Virus record (IMG/VR): IMGVR_UViG_3300042566_000599
Location: 32,346-96,345 of that record
Length of the DNA stretch: 64,000 nucleotides
Source: a virus
Direction: 5' to 3' (one strand)
Shown here: positions 1,383 to 64,000 of the stretch, piece by piece
Layout: each line of letters opens with the position of its first letter
How positions within the stretch are numbered: the first letter of the stretch is position 1
Made by a program: the position numbers and the translations under genes
The notes under the pieces: model-generated
Told to the model about the DNA's origin: nothing
The model's database searches: none
Seen by the model: the letters and a program-made list of their open reading frames with translations, nothing else

Positions 1383-1714
1383 AAAAAGTAAAAGTAAAAA
1401 CACTTCCTTCATCACAACCAAAGAGAGCGACTAACAATCCTGTCTTCAATCTCAAAGTGCCAACACCACGCGACATTGACCAAACTCCATGTCAAAAGAA
1501 TGACCCTGAGATTTGGTTTCCTAGTGGAGAGAACCTTCCTGAAGACACCGAGAAGATAAAAACTGCTAAATCACTATGCGCTCAATGCCACGAAACAACT
1601 AAGTGCCTTTCATTCGCATTATCGAATCGGATTCGTTATGGGATTTGGGGTGGCACTACTGAATCAGAACGACAGACACTTATTCGTAGAGCAGAACGGA
1701 GTAAAACTAAATGA
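1379..1714 (+). CDS. whiB: WhiB-family Fe-S transcription factor
   Basis: C-x-x-x-DPEIWFP...AKSLCAQC...C...YGIWGG. Confidence 0.9.
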   Translation: MKKVKVKTLPSSQPKRATNNPVFNLKVPTPRDIDQTPCQKNDPEIWFPSGENLPEDTEKIKTAKSLCAQCHETTKCLSFALSNRIRYGIWGGTTESERQTLIRRAERSKTK

Positions 1715-3212: not shown

Positions 3213-4490
3213 ATGGCGTATGTCGTTCAGCGTGGGTCACGATTTACAGGCTATTACCGCATGGGCAAAAAACGCCTGTCTGCTGGCACATGGGGCAGTT
3301 TCAAGGAAGCCCAGTATCAGGCACTACGCATGGAGAATGGGGCTTCTGAGGGGCTTTCAAGGGCTAATTTGACCCTCTCTGAGTATGCCGATAAATGGCT
3401 TCAGAGGGCTGAATTACTGCCTATCACGAAAAAGGGGTATGAATCCCTATGGAAGAGGTACTTAGCCCCTCAAATCGGCTCTAAACAGGTTTCTGAGGTA
3501 TCCACGCTTGAAGTGAGGGAATTGCTGGGCGAATTGAAGGCTCAGGGGGTAGGGGGCGCGACTCTCGCTCAAATCAAGGCGTGTCTAGGCTCTCTCTACA
3601 AATGGTTACAAGAGGGGCAAATTACTCAAACCAACCCAACTAGGGGCATAAAGGTCAAAGTGGGCAAATCGGACATCTCCAATGTGGTCGAGCCTGACCA
3701 GTTCAAGAAGATTGTGACCCACCTACCAACAGAGGGTGCAAAGTTATTTGCAAAGTTCTTAGTTGCTTCAGGGGCGAGATTCGGTGAGGCAAGTGAGATT
3801 CGATTAAAAGATTTTAATTTCAATACAAAAGAAGTTTTTATTCAGAGGCGTGTCAGCGAGTTAGGCAAGAAGCACAACAAGGGAGAAAGATTCCTAGTCG
3901 TAGATGCCACTAAGTCGGGTTACAAGCGTGTAGTGGTGCTACCTGAAGCCCTACTACAAGAGATTCAAGCGTATGTCATGCTAAATCGCATAGGGAAAGA
4001 CGACCTAGTGTTTGAGAAAAGCAAAGTCATACCAAAAGATAAACTAAAGAGTTCTCGTGGCACAGAAAAGTCTTCACGACCATTCGTGAAAGACGGAAAA
4101 CTGTTCCAACATGGCACGCTCAGGGCTTACGCAAGTGGGTCTTGTAGGTGTGATGAGTGTAAGGCGATAGTTCGAGAGTATCGAAGGTCGCAAAGAGCAA
4201 AGTCATACCAAAAGGGTGAGGTCATACCAAAAGAACCGAGCCACTTGCCACGAGATACATGGAGAACCATTTGGAACAAAGCAATAGCCAAATCAGGCAT
4301 GGGTTGGAGTCCAAGAACTCACGATTTGCGTCACGCAAACGCAACGCAGTTACTTAAAAACGGCGTTGATGTGCATGAAGTAAAAGAGCGATTGGGTCAC
4401 CAGTCCATCAAAACTACCGAACGCTATCTCCACCGCGTTCGTCACCAGAAATCAAAGGCGAGTGAAGTTGTCAATGACTTTCTGGGTTAG
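3213..4490 (+). CDS. Tyrosine recombinase/integrase with inserted Zn finger
   Basis: Catalytic R (GARFGE), K (TKS), HxxR (HDLRH), H (LGH), Y; N-terminal arm/core-binding region. Confidence 0.9.
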   Translation: MAYVVQRGSRFTGYYRMGKKRLSAGTWGSFKEAQYQALRMENGASEGLSRANLTLSEYADKWLQRAELLPITKKGYESLWKRYLAPQIGSKQVSEVSTLEVRELLGELKAQGVGGATLAQIKACLGSLYKWLQEGQITQTNPTRGIKVKVGKSDISNVVEPDQFKKIVTHLPTEGAKLFAKFLVASGARFGEASEIRLKDFNFNTKEVFIQRRVSELGKKHNKGERFLVVDATKSGYKRVVVLPEALLQEIQAYVMLNRIGKDDLVFEKSKVIPKDKLKSSRGTEKSSRPFVKDGKLFQHGTLRAYASGSCRCDECKAIVREYRRSQRAKSYQKGEVIPKEPSHLPRDTWRTIWNKAIAKSGMGWSPRTHDLRHANATQLLKNGVDVHEVKERLGHQSIKTTERYLHRVRHQKSKASEVVNDFLG

Positions 4491-5132
4491 GAGAACTGAT
4501 GAAACTAGAAACACAGAATCGGCTTGTAGTGCTAATTCTCAGCACCGCCTTCCTTTCGGGGTTGTTTGGTGTAGGCAGAGTTAGCCCAGCGTTTAGTCCA
4601 ACACGGGCAGAGGCGTTGGTAGTGCAGGTCGAGCAAGAGTCCAGCGACAAGTTGCTTGTTAAGTTCGAGAACTCTCACAAGTTGAGTGACCTAGAACTAG
4701 TAGCCCTATTGAAAGCAGTAGGGTTCGAAGGCAAAGCATTACGAGAAGCATGGGCAGTTGCGAAGAAAGAATCGACAGGAAGACCGCTCGCGCACAATGG
4801 GAACGCCTCAACAGGCGACAACTCATACGGCTTGTTTCAAATAAACATGCTTGGAGAGTTGGGAGAAGAGCGTCGAAAGAAGTTTGGATTGGATTCCAAT
4901 GCCGAACTGCTAAACCCTGTGGTTAATGCCCAAATCGCTTATCACATGAGCGGTGGGGGCGACAACTGGAGTGCGTGGAAGGGAATGACTCAGCGAACCA
5001 GAGAATGGATAGCAAAGTTCCCTGACACTAAACCAAAAGCCAAAGCAATAGCAAAAGGCAAAGGTAATAACTAAATAGGTAAAGCAATAGGTAAAGGCTA
5101 GTAAAGCAAAGTCTTACCAAAAGCAATACCAA
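4020..5132 (+). repeat. Dispersed AGCAAAGTCATACCAAAAG-type direct repeats
   Basis: Exact copies 4020-4038 and 4196-4214; partial 4221-4233; one-mismatch copy 5105-5123; related AAAGCAATA units near 4278 and 5042-5132. Confidence 0.75.
4499..5074 (+). CDS. Lysozyme-like/SLT transglycosylase with N-terminal hydrophobic signal
   Basis: AWAVAKKES...GDNSYGLFQINM...NP..NA.IA motif; hydrophobic N-terminus. Confidence 0.8.
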   Translation: MKLETQNRLVVLILSTAFLSGLFGVGRVSPAFSPTRAEALVVQVEQESSDKLLVKFENSHKLSDLELVALLKAVGFEGKALREAWAVAKKESTGRPLAHNGNASTGDNSYGLFQINMLGELGEERRKKFGLDSNAELLNPVVNAQIAYHMSGGGDNWSAWKGMTQRTREWIAKFPDTKPKAKAIAKGKGNN

Positions 5133-5167
5133 GTGGAGTAGCCCTCTTGATTGGGGGTTACTCCACT
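5132..5167. terminator. Terminator hairpin between convergent genes
   Basis: AGTGGAGTAGCCCTC/GGGGGTTACTCCACT stem, T-rich downstream. Confidence 0.7.
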
Positions 5168-5907
5168 AAGTTTTTGTTTATTAAAAACCTCACTTGTTCC
5201 ATGACCTTAGTTCTTTTTGCAGTCAAATATCTTTCTTTTAATGGTTTGAAAGAAGAATATGTATTTGGAGCAGTACTAATTTCTTCTTCTATGTTTTTTA
5301 AAACAGTTGAGTTTATGTAACGTTTAAAAACAATTTTTTTATTAGTCATAAACTCTACATAAAATAAAGGGTCTCCTTCATTAAAGACCATTGTTCTAGA
5401 AGTTTTTGGTAAAAAGTAATTTAAATGATAAGGCCTATACCAAGAACCAATATCAAACTCTCCTGCAGTTAATATAGCCCCAGGTGCAGGAGTATGAGTG
5501 GGAAAATAAGGAGCAGTAAACTTAGCAATTAGGGGCTCATCAGCAACAAAGTTCCACGACAAATCTATGCTTATGTCATCGTAATTTTCGATAGAAGATG
5601 GTCTTGGTTTATAAGAATCAATTAAACAAGTTGAGTCTAGAGTGTCAAACATGACCTTATACTCATCAATGTTCTTAGGGATGTTTGCTTGAAAAGACAC
5701 TTCATTATAAACAGCATAAACGTTCTTTAACAAAGAGGTTGTCGCTGGACATGCAAATATTGTTTTTGGACCGCTATCACTTACTTTTTGTTTTCTAAGT
5801 GCATTAAACACATGCACTGGTTCTGCATAAAGCAGAGTTCTAGAGAATGCCTCTGGGTTATAACCAGAGGCAGTCCAATAGATTGTTATTGTGTCTTTGT
5901 CCTTCAC
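5158..5907 (-). CDS. Hypothetical protein, divergent dUTPase-fold-like family
   Basis: CPA...GEFDIGSWYRP...FNEGDPLFYVEF pattern parallels 22469 and 51529. Confidence 0.5.
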   Translation of the reverse strand: MKDKDTITIYWTASGYNPEAFSRTLLYAEPVHVFNALRKQKVSDSGPKTIFACPATTSLLKNVYAVYNEVSFQANIPKNIDEYKVMFDTLDSTCLIDSYKPRPSSIENYDDISIDLSWNFVADEPLIAKFTAPYFPTHTPAPGAILTAGEFDIGSWYRPYHLNYFLPKTSRTMVFNEGDPLFYVEFMTNKKIVFKRYINSTVLKNIEEEISTAPNTYSSFKPLKERYLTAKRTKVMEQVRFLINKNLVE

Positions 5908-20183: not shown

Positions 20184-20500
20184 TACACATCCTTACTAAA
20201 TATAAACTCTTCTAAGGTCATTTTCTTTTTGTATTTTTTTTGCCACTTTCGTACTAAAGCGTTCCTTTCTCGATGAGAGAGTCCTCCCCAAATTCCATGA
20301 GGCTCGTCTCTAGAGACTGCGTCCCATAAACATGCGTTTTTAACTGGACAGTGAGTTTTTCCGTTCTCACCAAAACAAAAAGCCTTTGCTTTTTCAGCAA
20401 TGACTTTGTACTGCTCCTTATCTCGTGGTGGATAAAAGAGGTCAGTATCTTCTCCTGAGCATTTAGCCTGATATCTCCAGGCGTACTCTGGTTCTTCCAT
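20183..20500 (-). CDS. whiB: WhiB-family transcription factor (second copy)
   Basis: AKC...DLFYP...AKAFC...CPV...C...HGIWGGLS. Confidence 0.9.
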   Translation of the reverse strand: MEEPEYAWRYQAKCSGEDTDLFYPPRDKEQYKVIAEKAKAFCFGENGKTHCPVKNACLWDAVSRDEPHGIWGGLSHRERNALVRKWQKKYKKKMTLEEFIFSKDV

Positions 20501-46659: not shown

Positions 46660-48168
46660 TTAGTTTGCTGTCTTTTGACTTAGGTCAATGACAACGAACT
46701 CTGCTGGATACTGGAGAGCAACACCGACCTGAATGTTTACTTCTCCATTTGCAATCGATGTCGTGGTGTTGTTTTCTCCATCGCACTTGATAAAGAATGC
46801 TTGTGCGTTGGTTGCTCCACGAAGTCCACCCTGGTTACGATACTCAGAGAGGAATGCTGTTAGCGATGTACGAACCTGTGCCCAGAGACGCTCATCATTG
46901 TTTTCAAAGATTGCAAACTCTGTGAGATTCTTTAGGTTCTTTCGGATGTAGATTAGCGAACGACGCATGTTTACATACTTGTTTGCTGTTCCATCTTGCT
47001 TGAGGGTACGTGCTCCCATTACTGAAAGTCCTGCACCAGGAATCTGACGAATCGGATTAATTGGAGAAGTAGATGCGTTCATAGAGTCAAGTTCAGTTGA
47101 AGAAAATGTGCGGTCCATTGCTACAGCACCTAGAACCTGAGTTCCAATACCTGCTGGAGCCTTAAATACGCCACGTGTTGCATCAGTTGTAAGGTAAAGC
47201 CCAACTACTGCACCTGCTGGACCAATTCTACGCAATGCACCTGAACCACGACCTAGTGGGTCAGAGGTGTAGAAGTGTGGGTAGTAGACAGCAGCATTAC
47301 TAGTATCTGTTAGGCTGGCAGCAAATGAAATTGCTTGAAGAACAGTTAGGTCTGCATCTGTGTCAACAACTACAAAGCCGTTGTGTTCTTCAGACCAAGA
47401 AGATGCTGCATCGTAGACTGAAGCAGTACCTGAAGCCAACACGTTAGCATCTGGCAAAAAGATTACAAGTGGACGCTCTAAAGTTGAGAATCGTTCAAAA
47501 ACTGAAGAAGTTCCTCCCTTGTAAGTTAAGTAGTCTGCAGAAGTTGGAGTAGTTCCATTACTTCCCCCAGTTAGTGGGTAGGTTGCAGAAGTGATGGTCT
47601 GTCCTGCGTATCCTCCGTCTACTGTCACAGTGATGTTTGGCGAAACTACGTTGATAACGGTTTCAGCATAATCGCTTGAAGTATCGTCATCAAAAACGAT
47701 GTTTTCATAACGTTCTAATAGAATGTCATCAGAAATTCCTGATGCTCCAGACTCTTTGTATAGGGTCAGGGTGTATGTTCCAGACACTTGTCCTGCTTCA
47801 AGAACAACACGAAGGTTGTTTCCATCAGTTCCCGCATTCTTTGCTAAAACTTCTACTTGAGCAGCACTTCCGCTATCAACTAGATTGACGTCAGCCTTTA
47901 CAGCATCTGCTGCTAGTAATCGTTTTACGTAAAGTTCACGACCTCCATTGGCGAAGAATGAGCCAACTTGGAATGTCGCTGGATATGAGGCATTGTATCC
48001 ACCAAAATATTTGGTAAATTCATACCATGAAGTAACAAGCGTTGTTGCTTCTGGACCTTGTGCAAATGTAGCAACAACGGCACCAGCAGCATCGGCGCTA
48101 ACGCCAGCAGGGATTGCTGATGGTAGAAGACGTTCACTGATGTAAACGCCTGGACGGCTATAAGCCAT
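46660..48168 (-). CDS. Tail sheath protein
   Basis: RPGVYISE, FFANGG, GVFKAPAG, GART, YVN.RR, FE.ND, PAEF. Confidence 0.95.
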   Translation of the reverse strand: MAYSRPGVYISERLLPSAIPAGVSADAAGAVVATFAQGPEATTLVTSWYEFTKYFGGYNASYPATFQVGSFFANGGRELYVKRLLAADAVKADVNLVDSGSAAQVEVLAKNAGTDGNNLRVVLEAGQVSGTYTLTLYKESGASGISDDILLERYENIVFDDDTSSDYAETVINVVSPNITVTVDGGYAGQTITSATYPLTGGSNGTTPTSADYLTYKGGTSSVFERFSTLERPLVIFLPDANVLASGTASVYDAASSWSEEHNGFVVVDTDADLTVLQAISFAASLTDTSNAAVYYPHFYTSDPLGRGSGALRRIGPAGAVVGLYLTTDATRGVFKAPAGIGTQVLGAVAMDRTFSSTELDSMNASTSPINPIRQIPGAGLSVMGARTLKQDGTANKYVNMRRSLIYIRKNLKNLTEFAIFENNDERLWAQVRTSLTAFLSEYRNQGGLRGATNAQAFFIKCDGENNTTTSIANGEVNIQVGVALQYPAEFVVIDLSQKTAN

Positions 48169-48900: not shown

Positions 48901-49211
48901 AGGTCACCAAAGTGTTTCTCTAATCGACCAAGAAAAAAATGCTCTGATTCGTCTTGTCTGTTTTTAAAGCGACGAACAGCAGCAGTAGGCTGTGTACTTG
49001 GGGTGCCATACTCTAGGTTCATCGCGGTCTCATAGTGTTTGTTTGAGACATGCGCTTCAAAGCCATCATTGCCGTGCTTGACGTGCAATGTACGTGATAC
49101 ACGAGAAGGCCAACCACTGGCCTGTGCTTCCGAACGAAGACGTGCAGACATAAGCCTTGTAGTCTCATGACTAGCGGCTTTAACTGCATTATTAAATTTA
49201 GATAAGGTCAC
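48897..49211 (-). CDS. Neck/head-tail protein
   Basis: LEYGT motif; position. Confidence 0.5.
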   Translation of the reverse strand: MTLSKFNNAVKAASHETTRLMSARLRSEAQASGWPSRVSRTLHVKHGNDGFEAHVSNKHYETAMNLEYGTPSTQPTAAVRRFKNRQDESEHFFLGRLEKHFGDL

Positions 49212-49396
49212 TTCTTTTTGGCCTTTTTCACAAGTTTTTCAGCGGCTTTACCACTTGCATAACCTGCGACAAGACCAGCAACAATTGGTTGCGTAAGTTT
49301 TGGACGTTGACCAAACACGCCCTTCATAAACTCTTCAACTTCTGCAGCGTTCTGCAATTCAGCAGCACGCTCATACCAAGGCTTCCAAGCCATCAT
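49208..49396 (-). CDS. Hypothetical protein
   Basis: 62 aa; AAAGGGG RBS. Confidence 0.6.
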   Translation of the reverse strand: MMAWKPWYERAAELQNAAEVEEFMKGVFGQRPKLTQPIVAGLVAGYASGKAAEKLVKKAKKK

Positions 49397-49464
49397 AATC
49401 CCCTTTGTCGCAAGTAGTGGGCACTACACGGAGTCCGCACGGAGTTCCGATAAGACAAGGATAG

Positions 49465-49490
49465 AAGAAAGGCCCCAATTAAGGGGCCTA
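49465..49490 (-). terminator. Rho-independent terminator closing the microprotein operon
   Basis: GGCCCC-TTAATT-GGGGCC then TTTCTT on the minus strand. Confidence 0.65.
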
Positions 49491-49494
49491 ACTC

Positions 49495-49779
49495 TTACTT
49501 CTTTTCTTTCTTCTCCCGCTTTTCCTCCGCCTTTTCGCCTCTCTTTCCTTCCTTCTTTTCGTGAGCCTTTTCTTTGCTCTTTATGCCCTTGATAATCTTC
49601 TTATCAATCTTGACATCTTCTTGAAGGGTCTTTGGCTTCTTCTTTTTGCCGTGAGCGGTATCTTTCTTTTCGAAATCTTCCTTTTGCTCTTTATCAAGCC
49701 CAGCCTTCTTGGTTAGGTACGCATCCATCTTGTCATCAGACTTCTTTGTGTACGTACCCTTCATAGGAGGCTTCTTCAT
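49495..49779 (-). CDS. Lys-rich protein
   Basis: About one third Lys; TAATG coupling. Confidence 0.7.
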   Translation of the reverse strand: MKKPPMKGTYTKKSDDKMDAYLTKKAGLDKEQKEDFEKKDTAHGKKKKPKTLQEDVKIDKKIIKGIKSKEKAHEKKEGKRGEKAEEKREKKEKK

Positions 49780-49916
49780 TACATGCCTTTCTTTCTTGGC
49801 ATAGTCTGCTTCTTACCCTTAGAGGCACGAAGCATCTTTAAATCAGGTGCATCAATCTTGCTTTTGTTTCCAGCAAGAGCAGCCATTTTTTTCTGCTTAG
49901 GAGATAACTTCTTCAT
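49779..49916 (-). CDS. 45-aa basic microprotein
   Basis: MKKLSPKQKKMAALAGNKSKIDAPDLKMLRASKGKKQTMPRKKGM; TAATG overlaps at both ends. Confidence 0.7.
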   Translation of the reverse strand: MKKLSPKQKKMAALAGNKSKIDAPDLKMLRASKGKKQTMPRKKGM

Positions 49917-49981
49917 TAGTTCCCCTTCTTGCAGATGCTGCACTTGCACTTGCAATTTCTCATTTTACAGGAGAGAGCCAT
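49916..49981 (-). CDS. 21-aa Cys/Lys micropeptide
   Basis: MALSCKMRNCKCKCSICKKGN; TAATG overlaps at both ends. Confidence 0.6.
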   Translation of the reverse strand: MALSCKMRNCKCKCSICKKGN

Positions 49982-50100
49982 TACTTCTTTTTCTCCTTTT
50001 TCTTGTCATCTTTCTTTTTTGCATACTTCTTATTAGCAGCGGCTAGGGTCTTCTCGCCATGCTTGTCTTTTGGCTTCATACATCCACATGTAGCACACAT
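49981..50100 (-). CDS. 39-aa basic microprotein with CxxCxC
   Basis: MCATCGCMKPKDKHGEKTLAAANKKYAKKKDDKKKEKKK; TAATG overlaps. Confidence 0.7.
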   Translation of the reverse strand: MCATCGCMKPKDKHGEKTLAAANKKYAKKKDDKKKEKKK

Positions 50101-50249
50101 TATTTTTTACCTGCTTTCTGTTTTGTGGGTTTTGCTATTCTGTTCTTGCCAGAACGGTCGGGAACACAGTTAGGTACCTTCTTGCCGTTCTTCATCTTCA
50201 TGCCTACTTGAACGTAACCGTCCCAGCATGGGTCAGATTTTTTAGCCAT
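50100..50249 (-). CDS. 49-aa microprotein with PCW.GY...VPNCVP motif
   Basis: MAKKSDPCWDGYVQVGMKMKNGKKVPNCVPDRSGKNRIAKPTKQKAGKK; TAATG overlaps. Confidence 0.75.
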   Translation of the reverse strand: MAKKSDPCWDGYVQVGMKMKNGKKVPNCVPDRSGKNRIAKPTKQKAGKK

Positions 50250-50455
50250 TACTTTTCCTTCTTGTGAGGGTTCTTTTTGTGCCAGTCTTTGACAGCCTTA
50301 ACACCCTGCTTAATTGTCTTAGACTCACCTTTTTTAGTCAGGTTAATCTTGTCCCACTTACCAGCCTTAGCCTTGGCTTCATGGTCGACGATAACGTCGC
50401 CCTTCTTGTTCTTTTTTACAGTGTGCTTTATTCCATCGACTTTAACGGTCTTCAT
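50249..50455 (-). CDS. 68-aa Lys-rich protein
   Basis: ORF track; coupled at both ends. Confidence 0.7.
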   Translation of the reverse strand: MKTVKVDGIKHTVKKNKKGDVIVDHEAKAKAGKWDKINLTKKGESKTIKQGVKAVKDWHKKNPHKKEK

Positions 50456-50634
50456 ACGTCAGCAATCTTCTTTCGTTTGTAACGGATAGGCGGCTTTGGC
50501 TTACGAACATATCCGCCCTTCTTTTTGCGCAATCCTGCGCCGCCTGATTCGTACTTGTCTTCTGCTATAGAGGTACGAACTTGCTTTTGAGGGGATTTTC
50601 CTGCGCGAGCGCCTGCGGTCTGTTTACGTCGCAT
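50452..50634 (-). CDS. 60-aa basic protein resembling the histone H3 tail
   Basis: MRRKQTAGARAGKSPQKQV...GGYVRKPKPPIRYK; coupled at both ends. Confidence 0.7.
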   Translation of the reverse strand: MRRKQTAGARAGKSPQKQVRTSIAEDKYESGGAGLRKKKGGYVRKPKPPIRYKRKKIADV

Positions 50635-50810
50635 TACTTTTTCTTCTTTGACATTCCTGCTTCGCTCATCGCGATAGCAACGGCTTGTTTGCGTGATTTA
50701 ACTACTGGACCTTTTCCTGGACCCTTTTTTCCAGACTTAAGTTTTTCTTCTTTGTACTCACGCATTACTTTTTCAACTTTACCTTTTTGCTTTGAAGTTG
50801 CTTTAGCCAT
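50634..50810 (-). CDS. 58-aa DUF6496-like basic protein
   Basis: KVEKVMREYK...LKSG...VKSRKQAVAIAMSEAG. Confidence 0.75.
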   Translation of the reverse strand: MAKATSKQKGKVEKVMREYKEEKLKSGKKGPGKGPVVKSRKQAVAIAMSEAGMSKKKK

Positions 50811-50947
50811 CACACATCCCCTTCTTCTAGGTCGTCTTCGTCGTTGTAATGGCTATTGTAGTCTTCAGCCATTTCTAATTCATCATCAATTTCATCTAAC
50901 AAAGCCTCATCAAAGAGGTCTGGGTCTAACTCTGGCTCAAAATCCAT
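50810..50947 (-). CDS. 45-aa hyperacidic microprotein
   Basis: MDFEPELDPDLFDEALLDEIDDELEMAEDYNSHYNDEDDLEEGDV; AAGGAG RBS; TGATG overlap. Confidence 0.7.
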   Translation of the reverse strand: MDFEPELDPDLFDEALLDEIDDELEMAEDYNSHYNDEDDLEEGDV

Positions 50948-50956
50948 GTGCTCTCC

Positions 50957-51499
50957 TTATTCTGTGTACTGTTGAAATTGAGGGTCGTTGACCAACTCTT
51001 CTGCATTTACCTGATTTAGGTCAACTGTAACAACTGAGTATCTCTCTTTATATCTACCACGTGGATTTACACGTGTAGGAGTGAAGACGTGATTTTGAAA
51101 AATAACTCTATCTTTTATGTGATTAGTAGGATTAGGGATAACATCTGGAAGTAGACGGTTTATATCATCGACAGCAATTACAAGGCGCAAAGTGTCAACC
51201 GTGTAGAAACCGCGTTCATTCATTATGTTTTGGCCACGAACCTGTTGAGCCAAAATTACTGGCATTTTAAAAGGCTCATCCCAACGACGACCTAGACCAT
51301 CAGTTTGGTTTGAGACATCATAGATAGGGTCTACATAATCACTGTAATTATCTGAGAACTCAGTGGGATTCCAAATCCACCAATCAACCACTGTGCCTAC
51401 AGGGTCGCGTAACTCATCGACCATACCCTCATCCATAGACATGGTTTCGAAATCTATCTTAAAACGACCTTGAACCTTAGAGCCACGCATACGACCCAT
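50957..51499 (-). CDS. Head closure/neck protein
   Basis: 180 aa beta-rich; structural module position. Confidence 0.5.
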   Translation of the reverse strand: MGRMRGSKVQGRFKIDFETMSMDEGMVDELRDPVGTVVDWWIWNPTEFSDNYSDYVDPIYDVSNQTDGLGRRWDEPFKMPVILAQQVRGQNIMNERGFYTVDTLRLVIAVDDINRLLPDVIPNPTNHIKDRVIFQNHVFTPTRVNPRGRYKERYSVVTVDLNQVNAEELVNDPQFQQYTE

Positions 51500-51528: not shown

Positions 51529-52242
51529 CTATTTAAATTCCTTTTTACTTCTGTAAAAAGTCTTATAGGAATCAAAAATTTTTACCTTTAATCTGATGCT
51601 TACCTTTGATAATTCTCGCAGGTCTTCTTGTGACCCAAAAACAGTGTTCCAAGACTCTCTCTTAAATGGGATTACCTGTGCCATAGGAGTTCCAGCAGGG
51701 ATTAGACCCTCAAAAGAGTAGTCGTTTAATACAAATGGAAAGTTAATTGGAGCAAAGTACTTATCAGTGTCTACCACACCTGGAAAAATGGTGAAAACAG
51801 AGTCTCTATGAAGAGGTTGCACAAATAGTGAGGAATATCCTGGAGGAGTCTTGACACCCCACTGGTTCATCCACTTTGGGTAGGATAGTTCATGGCCACC
51901 TTTTCCTGGATGATTAGGCGCTTGCTCTATGGGATGGAATTCCACTGCAGTAAGGGAAGGCCACTCATAGTAGGGTGCCGTACCAGCCTTAGTATTCGGG
52001 TCTTTGCGTTGAGTTACAAATATATCTACTGAAGTAAACAGAATATATCCTGCAGAAATAGCGTCAAATACAGGCATACATCTTTTGATAGTTCCTGTAG
52101 TTGTCCCATCTCCTCCAGGAATTTTTTTATTGTCAATTAGATAGGAGTCTAATTCCTTATACCAATCTGGAACTACGCTACTGGCAGGTTGTGGTTTGTA
52201 GAACTCTGCTACAGTGCTTATCGGTGTAAACTTAATCTCCAT
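51529..52242 (-). CDS. Divergent dUTPase-fold-like protein
   Basis: TIKRCMPVFD, TPPGYS, PGVVDTD, IPAGTPMAQVIPFKRE; paralog of 22469. Confidence 0.55.
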   Translation of the reverse strand: MEIKFTPISTVAEFYKPQPASSVVPDWYKELDSYLIDNKKIPGGDGTTTGTIKRCMPVFDAISAGYILFTSVDIFVTQRKDPNTKAGTAPYYEWPSLTAVEFHPIEQAPNHPGKGGHELSYPKWMNQWGVKTPPGYSSLFVQPLHRDSVFTIFPGVVDTDKYFAPINFPFVLNDYSFEGLIPAGTPMAQVIPFKRESWNTVFGSQEDLRELSKVSIRLKVKIFDSYKTFYRSKKEFK

Positions 52243-63528: not shown

Positions 63529-64000
63529 CTAGTTGGTGTAGACCTTGACGATAGCCTGGTCTGTGATTACACCTAGACCCCAAATTGCGTACCAAGCAAG
63601 AGCGTGCTCGCGACCGAAGTCAAGAACACCACCATCACGAAGTTCAACTGGGAGAGAGATTGCGTGACCAAATGCGTTGTCACCAATCATGATTGATTCG
63701 TAAACTTCAGCACCGTTACCAGTTGCTGTTGTTAGGTAACCCTTTTCTGCAGTGAAATCTGCAGACTCTGGGTTTCCACCTGAACCAGGGGCAGTGTTTG
63801 CCTTAACTGGAACAGTTGCAGCAGAAGCAGGAACAGCAACATCAGTAGAAGTTGTGTATGCAGCGTTAACTGCCAACTTCTTAACCTGTGTTGTTTCGAT
63901 GAATACTACGTCGTATAGACGACCGATTTCACCGAGCATGAAGTTACCTGGAGCAGCGTACTTTGTAACTTCGATGAACTCTGGGTTCGAACGAATGTCA
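63529..64000 (-). CDS. Major capsid protein (N4-gp56-like), C-terminal part
   Basis: GEIGRLYDVVFIETT, DFGREHALAWYAIWG; frame open to window end. Confidence 0.85.
   Translation of the reverse strand, partial: DIRSNPEFIEVTKYAAPGNFMLGEIGRLYDVVFIETTQVKKLAVNAAYTTSTDVAVPASAATVPVKANTAPGSGGNPESADFTAEKGYLTTATGNGAEVYESIMIGDNAFGHAISLPVELRDGGVLDFGREHALAWYAIWGLGVITDQAIVKVYTN

Follow-up and report, generated by a model that had tools for sequence, protein, structure and literature searches.

Nine coupled microgenes of an actinobacterial myophage as a candidate set of internal head proteins

Introduction

What does a phage make from a row of nine very short reading frames, each joined to the next, and what purpose could their products serve? 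The question is raised by positions 49495-50947 of the stretch of viral DNA analyzed here (the window), 64,000 nucleotides (nt) that correspond to bases 32346-96345 of the complete, 96,345-bp IMG/VR virus record IMGVR_UViG_3300042566_000599, in which terminal repeats are present. A prediction made from the letters of the window alone (hereafter, the original prediction) had described at this site a chain of nine coupled microprotein genes and had proposed that they specify protamine- or histone-like core proteins with a co-expressed acidic chaperone, or else a set of injected effectors. Our follow-up analyses lead us to conclude that the nine genes (m1 to m9) are real, coupled, conserved and modular, with the families named below. 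The interpretation that we favor, in about equal measures of confidence and doubt, is that their products are nine internal head proteins, eight of them lysine-rich and one acidic, and that the genes, as a coupled block, close the head/neck late operon of an actinobacterial myophage. The packaging of the products, their binding of DNA and metals and the role of the acidic leader are parts of this interpretation that we infer.

Architecture of the chain

Nine open reading frames (ORFs) of 45, 58, 60, 68, 49, 39, 21, 45 and 94 amino acids (aa) tile the interval, all of them on the minus strand. The features of the chain, in the order of transcription, are:

50953-50958, minus strand: Shine-Dalgarno sequence AAGGAG, five bases ahead of the m1 ATG and overlapping the stop codon of the upstream 180-aa gene
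50810-50947, minus strand: m1, 45-aa acidic leader (12 D, 10 E, no K or R; net charge -22)
50634-50810, minus strand: m2, 58-aa lysine-rich protein of the Pfam family DUF6496 (44.7 bits against a cut-off of 24)
50452-50634, minus strand: m3, 60-aa Lys/Arg-rich protein, probably disordered, present in 36 of 66 chains
50249-50455, minus strand: m4, 68-aa folded domain with four strands and a C-terminal helix (AlphaFold2 prediction) and invariant His11, His25 and His59
50100-50249, minus strand: m5, 49 aa, a CW.GY...VPNCVP module (predicted basic beta-hairpin) followed by a lysine-rich tail
49981-50100, minus strand: m6, 39 aa, an MCATCGC N-terminal cap (Cys2, Cys5, Cys7) followed by a lysine-rich tail
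49916-49981, minus strand: m7, 21-aa Cys/Lys peptide with five Cys, of the CKCKC type, metallothionein-like
49779-49916, minus strand: m8, 45-aa lysine-rich protein whose relatives carry an EF-hand-like loop or are fused to an MCxxCGC cap
49495-49779, minus strand: m9, 94-aa Lys/Glu-rich protein that closes the chain; its nearest ESM Atlas clusters are viral only
49460-49489, minus strand: intrinsic-terminator-like hairpin (arms AGGCCCC and GGGGCCT) and T-rich tail

This layout agrees with the original prediction in the number and lengths of the ORFs, in the extreme acidity of the first product and in the signals at both ends. The predicted junction types are also all present, with TGATG between m1 and m2, TAATG between m2 and m3, ATGA between m3 and m4 and five further TAATG junctions (six in total). 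Directly past the m9 stop codon, the hairpin (49489-49470) forms seven pairs, six of them G-C, and is followed by the T-rich tail. Six of the nine ORFs are shorter than 60 aa, so that a 60-aa cut-off would fit the statement in the original prediction that six are missing from the ORF track. The lysine tails, encoded by runs of AAG and AAA that often include GG, double as a purine-rich stretch 5' of the next start codon (50635-50652, 50250-50267 and 49982-49999), and the C-terminal KKK tails may also serve as ribosome-binding sites. Two plus-strand ORFs in the same region (50581-50991 and 49783-50046) were rejected, because their Leu/Phe-rich products are the antisense of lysine codons and it is the minus-strand frames that are under selection.

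Conservation of the chain in relatives

Two scans of viral contigs with the flanking 180-aa and 233-aa proteins recovered 155 lake-metagenome loci, 104 of which carry both flanks and reduce to 66 distinct intervals, the window's own included. The order of the genes is kept across these 66 chains (median of nine genes, range 4-12), which span 1.5-3.7 kb, and thus the synteny in relatives that the original prediction had named as a check is present. Adjacent genes overlap by 1 nt at 268 of the 511 junctions, and 384 junctions fall between -20 and +2 nt, a pattern that is far beyond chance. For each of the nine genes, nonsynonymous divergence from the relatives (pN, 0.11-0.32) is well below synonymous divergence (pS, 0.65-0.82), indicative of purifying selection on all of them. 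The lowest pN of the chain is that of m6 (0.11), which is more conserved than the structural flanks; the values of the leader are pN 0.23 and pS 0.66. Of 48 related intervals, 36 have kept the hairpin with a perfect stem and a T-rich tail, and both arms show changes. Furthermore, the chain persists although the flanking 180-aa protein has diverged to 58% identity among relatives. The gene order, the overlaps, the low pN relative to pS, the recurrent terminator and the confident m4 fold all argue that the ORFs are real, coupled and selected genes, and the argument from overlaps in the original prediction is upheld. Several of the ORFs are very short (21-49 aa) and of low complexity, as would be expected if some or all were chance frames in DNA rich in lysine codons. 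Yet we give this explanation next to no credence, given the selection on each gene, the highly conserved junctions, the m2 match above a curated Pfam cut-off, the confident m4 fold and the m5 columns that are invariant across distant phages.

The cassettes of the relatives also contain DUF6321 proteins (for example, at locus L105) and several unnamed basic families. Fusions join the families of the cassette to one another: DUF6321 is fused to m4 and to m5, a Cys cap to m5, and tails resembling m8 or m9 to caps. In some relatives (L071 and L080) the DUF6321 gene overlaps an m5-type gene by 13 nt, and in the database protein P0007 the m5 gene runs on into a Cys-capped peptide; neighboring microgenes are here caught while fusing or splitting. 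The variable gene content (4-12) and interval length could also mean that the locus is a hyperplastic slot that collects unrelated accessory genes, for anti-defense or host takeover, with no shared function and an incidental place in the structural operon. Single lineages do carry insertions of an HNH endonuclease gene (118 aa; L153:4079-4435) or a LysM protein gene (326 aa; L131:3348-4325), and in some relatives (L011:7301-8029; L129) a paralogue of a 237-aa gene that lies upstream of the chain sits behind the last microgene. We consider such a slot improbable, because the swapped-in genes are nearly always small, lysine-rich and drawn from one pool of modules, the acidic leader and the order from m2 to m9 persist, and fusions link the families.

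The m5 module and the head interior

The connection to the head is through m5. Its module comprises 12 columns that are invariant across distant phages, among them a Cys pair, and is predicted to form a basic beta-hairpin. It aligns with residues 334-370 of Syn9 gp114 (E 1.3e-11), directly followed there by DUF6321, and also matches SSM1_115 of phage S-SM1, which is T4-GC119 (1488 nt). Purified S-SM1 virions yielded 13 peptide counts for the GC119 product of S-SM1, of the same gene length (Sullivan et al., 2010; PMC3037559, Table S8). Only this table describes T4-GC119 as a structural protein; its label in two S-SM1 records is 'hypothetical protein'. In HSTV-1, gene 13 carries the m5 module after an XkdF-type prohead protease domain and lies between a portal-complex gene and the capsid gene. 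In the database protein P0106 it is found on the C-terminal side of a domain that resembles a portal (matched in Pfam with less than the gathering score), and in the lake actinophage DSL-LC01 it is encoded two genes past the portal gene. Because m5 homologues occur in a virion-detected cyanophage protein, a prohead protease and a portal-like protein, we tentatively place the set in the head interior, on indirect support. The location of the chain is in keeping with this placement: it is on the same strand as the portal, scaffold and capsid genes, and a conserved terminator closes it. Small basic genes are also present beside packaging genes elsewhere in this genome, namely one for a 90-aa protein and a DUF6321 gene paired with an AKKA-repeat gene. 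The original prediction had left open whether the products are core proteins or injected effectors; a position inside the head, which covers the injected option, is the best supported part of that proposal through the m5 and DUF6321 relatives, and the histone or protamine identity is the part that found no support.

The module is widespread. We found it in 615 longer relatives, often as tandem pairs and often fused to DUF6321; other fusion partners are DUF5661, DUF5824, ferritin, cytidylyltransferase and kinase domains. A search for DUF5824 in S-SM1 found none, giving no sign that its virion-detected cytidylyltransferase T4-GC190 carries one of these modules. Among isolates, the m5 module is present in 137 records. 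By organism name, these phages infect cyanobacteria (Synechococcus among them), haloarchaea, Methylophilales, Paraglaciecola, Rhodobacter and a lake actinobacterium; phage C48C1 and an uncultured metagenomic phage complete the list. The segment of Syn9 gp114 that combines m5 and DUF6321 is found in 493 records, which by name are phages of cyanobacteria, Pelagibacter and Methylophilales plus marine and uncultured viruses. The hosts of these m5 and DUF6321 phages are aquatic.

Several observations weigh against a head location. Relatives from virions or the capsid interior were found for m5 only, and m2, m3, m4 and m6 to m9 are linked to it by gene position and fusions. T4-GC119 was not detected in Syn9 virions (PMC3037559, Table S8), and sticky basic proteins can co-purify with virions. 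Moreover, the m5 module need not mark capsid proteins, because it is also fused to kinases, cytidylyltransferases and ferritin. A search of the complete genome for prohead proteases of the S78, S78_2 and S77 types found none, although the S77 part of this negative is weak because its control detected the family in none of the control genomes; no T4-like route for loading small proteins is therefore in view. Lastly, the charge of the leader does not scale with the basic charge of the set.

The missing protease and the lack of any loading signal are also what would be expected if the proteins were not packaged at all and acted in the cytoplasm late in infection, for instance on ribosomes, as a coat on host DNA or RNA, or in the condensation of replicated phage DNA ahead of its packaging. 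The high positive charge, the expression at the end of the late operon and the occurrence of the m5 module on enzymes that need not be in the virion are compatible with such a role. We regard it as possible but unlikely, because the cassette is fixed in the structural operon even where the 180-aa flank has diverged to 58% identity, because a fused relative has been seen in virions, and because prohead protease and portal-like proteins carry the module.

Charge of the set and the acidic leader

The eight proteins that follow the leader are basic, as predicted, and lysine-rich, but they are not rich in arginine: together they contain 129 K and 17 R (K/R 7.6, versus 1.14 in the 73 large ORFs of the phage). 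The sole Arg-rich member of the chain is m3. One set of the eight amounts to 435 residues, 30% of them Lys, with a net charge of +99. The genome contains 192,690 phosphates and, by our own arithmetic, some 200 sets of the eight basic proteins would neutralize roughly a tenth of the DNA charge.

The leader is present in 64-65 of the 66 chains and always comes first. It has conserved motifs of its own, FEPE(L/I)DPxLF and EDYDDH.WDEE, and a search with its profile retrieved only 11 representative clusters among 1.84 billion proteins. The one long match of this profile (P0279) was set aside as an HNH endonuclease run together with a leader; it is unrelated to the 180-aa gene. The original prediction had cast the leader as an acidic chaperone of the basic proteins, a role that the charges do not bear out. 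The 22 acidic residues of m1, with no basic ones, provide only about a fifth of the charge of one basic set, and across the 66 chains leader charge and basic charge vary inversely (Spearman -0.43). For these reasons we rejected a one-to-one neutralization of the polycations by the leader. A specific partnership between leader and cassette remains plausible, however, because the leader is almost always there, holds the first position and has its own conserved motifs. The same constancy, fixed position and specific motifs suggest a dedicated role, perhaps in assembly.

Candidate metal sites

Cys- and His-rich motifs recur along the chain. The N-terminus of m6, M-C-A-T-C-G-C, has the CxxCGC arrangement of HypB with Cys2, Cys5 and Cys7; m6 has only 39 residues and no Pfam domain, and thus lacks the CobW/HypB GTPase domain. 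At least one MCxxCG cap is found in 59 of the 66 chains, and in the relatives such caps are joined to varied tails (m8-like, m9-like or metallothionein-like). Metallothionein-like Cys/Lys peptides are common as well. Relatives of m8 either contain an EF-hand-like loop (D.N.NGKLD..DF) or are fused behind an MCxxCGC cap; the m8 of the window has no canonical loop.

It is conceivable from these motifs that the set handles metals, with peptides that capture or deliver nickel, zinc or calcium on behalf of the phage or keep it from the host, the lysine tails being secondary. The HypB-type site of m6, the frequency of caps and metallothionein-like peptides, the three invariant His of m4, the EF-hand-like loops of m8 relatives and the invariant Cys pair of m5, a module that often occurs in tandem, would all suit this function. 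On balance we find it unlikely, because obvious ligands are missing from m2, m3 and m9, the canonical loop has been lost from the m8 of the window and no metalloenzyme client is evident nearby.

Other proteins of the chain

The m2 protein matches the DUF6496 hidden Markov model (PF20106) over residues 10-53 with 44.7 bits (gathering cut-off 24; E 1.8e-11). In 120 longer viral proteins the DUF6496 module is always C-terminal. We found no literature that names DUF6496, DUF6321, DUF5661, DUF5824 or DUF3721, nor any that deals with this type of cassette. The AlphaFold2 model of m4 (predicted local distance difference test score of 87) has four strands and a helix, and its three His are invariant in our alignment (A1). 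From the modeled pairing of the strands (residues 9-15 with 21-25) we infer that His11 would be opposite His25. Fold searches with m4 gave no clear match: the best Foldseek hit had an E value of 1.9, and the best VIA-align Z scores (5.0 for the inhibitory subunit of methane monooxygenase; 4.5 for HVO_2922 and ATU0232, small proteins of the UPF0339 type) are below the level of shared ancestry. Of 32 longer proteins with the m4 domain, 13 have it fused to DUF6321, and it is also embedded in phage proteins of 1036 and 1522 aa.

For the remaining proteins, database searches returned little. PHROG and Pfam scans yielded nothing useful for m1, m3, m4 and m6 to m9, and in the Pfam scan none of the nine matched DUF6321 (PF19846), a domain of the relatives' cassettes and of the same genome outside the window. 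The ESM Atlas returned only unnamed viral clusters for m9 and m3, and PDB sequence searches with m2, m4 and m5 returned no match. Among phage isolates, a nucleotide search with the 5-kb region produced only a 78-base match, to DSL-LC01, and tblastn with m2, m4 and m9 found none, although the low-complexity filter may hide lysine-rich matches.

Genome setting

The phage is of the myophage type, with a sheath gene at window positions 46660-48168 and a tube gene. Its closest isolates are Streptomyces phages and it has two WhiB-family genes (window 1481-1681, plus strand, and 20255-20479, minus strand; 70 and 65 bits), from which we deduce an actinobacterial host. The portal, scaffold and capsid genes, on the same strand as the chain, span the ends of the record. 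The major capsid gene is split over these ends (window 63532-63996; genome 4-783) with overlapping residues, and the 'terminal repeat' therefore sits within the capsid gene; it probably reflects circular assembly rather than true genome ends.

After the capsid gene come collagen-like fiber genes, a glycosylation block on the opposite strand and a five-gene unit that ends in the 180-aa gene, a homologue of gene 85 of Streptomyces phage Alone3. The chain and its terminator follow directly. On the 3' side of the terminator are a 62-aa gene, a 104-aa gene, the 233-aa homologue of Alone3 gene 89 (annotated as 'minor tail protein'), the sheath gene and the tube gene. With the gene 85 homologue upstream and the gene 89 homologue ahead of the sheath, the proposed location between neck genes is a reasonable one. 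The corresponding slot in Streptomyces phages holds a tailspike gene and two other genes, with no microproteins.

Several small genes around the chain deserve mention. The 62-aa gene (window 49208-49396) is kept in the relatives; its product has a hydrophobic stretch rich in Gly and Ala and, behind it, a KKAKKK tail, and could be a small protein of the membrane or one associated with the phage tail. The 237-aa gene (window 51529-52242), two genes upstream of the chain, belongs to PHROG 7084, which has no assigned function. Outside the window, the 90-aa basic gene (G000:C1:3464-3736, minus strand) lies between the large terminase gene (4275-5858) and the portal gene, whose start it overlaps with its end. 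The protein carries the motif WP..GASAWVAKKY..GGQY, and a similar motif is present in Syn9 gp114 and in cassettes of the relatives. A second site for small basic proteins (G000:C1:8402-8884, minus strand) has a DUF6321 gene (92 aa, G000:C1:8606-8884; 87 bits) followed by a 67-aa gene, whose product ends in a tail of AKKA/PVKK repeats that resembles histone H1.

Proposed mechanism and significance

If the proteins are indeed internal head proteins, the genes would be expressed late and, because they are translationally coupled, in fixed ratios. The basic proteins would then enter the capsid and lie among the packaged DNA, with lysines as counter-ions of the phosphates, as in T4. Metal sites at the HypB-type N-terminal Cys caps, the Cys clusters, the three-His domain and the Cys pair could cross-link or stabilize the proteins, which at infection would probably exit together with the DNA. 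Assembly is the most likely stage for the leader to act, by holding the polycations away from nucleic acid or by directing them into the procapsid; of all the steps in the scheme, this one is the weakest.

In that event, a large and abundant group of lake phages would carry a many-component set of internal proteins that standard annotation has missed, with parts in common with marine cyanophages, pelagiphages and archaeal viruses. This bears on how phages of small, streamlined aquatic hosts neutralize and stabilize tightly packed DNA, on what enters the cell with the genome, and on the role of the widespread DUF6496, DUF6321 and T4-GC119 families. The HypB-type caps and the three-His domain also yield simple predictions of metal binding. 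A broader version, which we consider doubtful, is that aquatic phages of diverse hosts (freshwater actinobacteria, cyanobacteria, SAR11, Methylophilales and haloarchaea) share an exchangeable toolkit of lysine-rich, metal-capped modules, packed as counter-ions of their own in place of host polyamines and cations and loaded into the procapsid by the acidic peptide. Such a toolkit would be a self-contained, virus-encoded system of DNA condensation, overlooked because most of its genes are below gene-calling cut-offs.

Comparison with known systems

Condensation of DNA by small polycations is known from protamines, histone H1 and the adenovirus core proteins VII and mu. These proteins are Arg-rich or have a globular winged-helix domain, whereas the cassette is Lys-rich and built of unrelated conserved modules. 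The protamine- or histone-like identity in the original prediction is not supported, as no such homology or fold was found: Pfam gave no match to histone, protamine or HU-like proteins, nor did PDB sequence searches (m2, m4 and m5), and the models of m4 and m5 are not histone or HU folds, although only these two were folded and a remote fold in the others is possible. Of the eight basic proteins, no fewer than five represent specific conserved modules (DUF6496, the three-His domain, the CW.GY hairpin, the HypB-type cap and the Cys cluster), which sets them apart from generic polycations.

Two of these modules have counterparts in established families. The m2 protein is a member of DUF6496 above the curated cut-off, in a family with no assigned function. 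The N-terminal amine and three thiolates of HypB bind Ni(II) with picomolar affinity, through the sequence CTTCGC in Escherichia coli (PMC12284835). The Cys positions of m6 (2, 5 and 7) are exactly those of the E. coli protein, a likeness by sequence only; with 39 residues and no GTPase domain, m6 is not a HypB.

The internal proteins of T4 provide the functional precedent. The packaged DNA of T4 has about 1000 molecules of internal protein embedded in it, with lysines in contact with phosphates (PMC3012670). IPI to IPIII are small and basic, and the composition of the cassette fits this description. They are, however, larger than the cassette proteins and have no sequence similarity to them in Pfam and PHROG scans, and at least IPI is an anti-restriction protein. 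Their loading relies on an N-terminal capsid targeting sequence that is cut by the gp21 protease, of which we found no equivalent. Genome tables of T4-like phages also list an acidic small core protein, gp67, encoded beside gp68, a core protein with a basic tail.

The closest parallel is T4-GC119 (Syn9 gp114 and S-SM1 SSM1_115), which shares the m5 module, has its own DUF6321 directly behind it, and is likewise lysine-rich and modular. Its gene adjoins neck and packaging genes, similar to the structural setting of the chain. It differs in being a single chain of 443-495 aa, where the modules are here separate coupled genes, in having no acidic leader and in not matching m2, m3, m4 or m6 to m9. 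Phage internal head proteins as such are a known kind of protein; these families, with their split and coupled architecture, acidic leader and metal motifs, have not been described.

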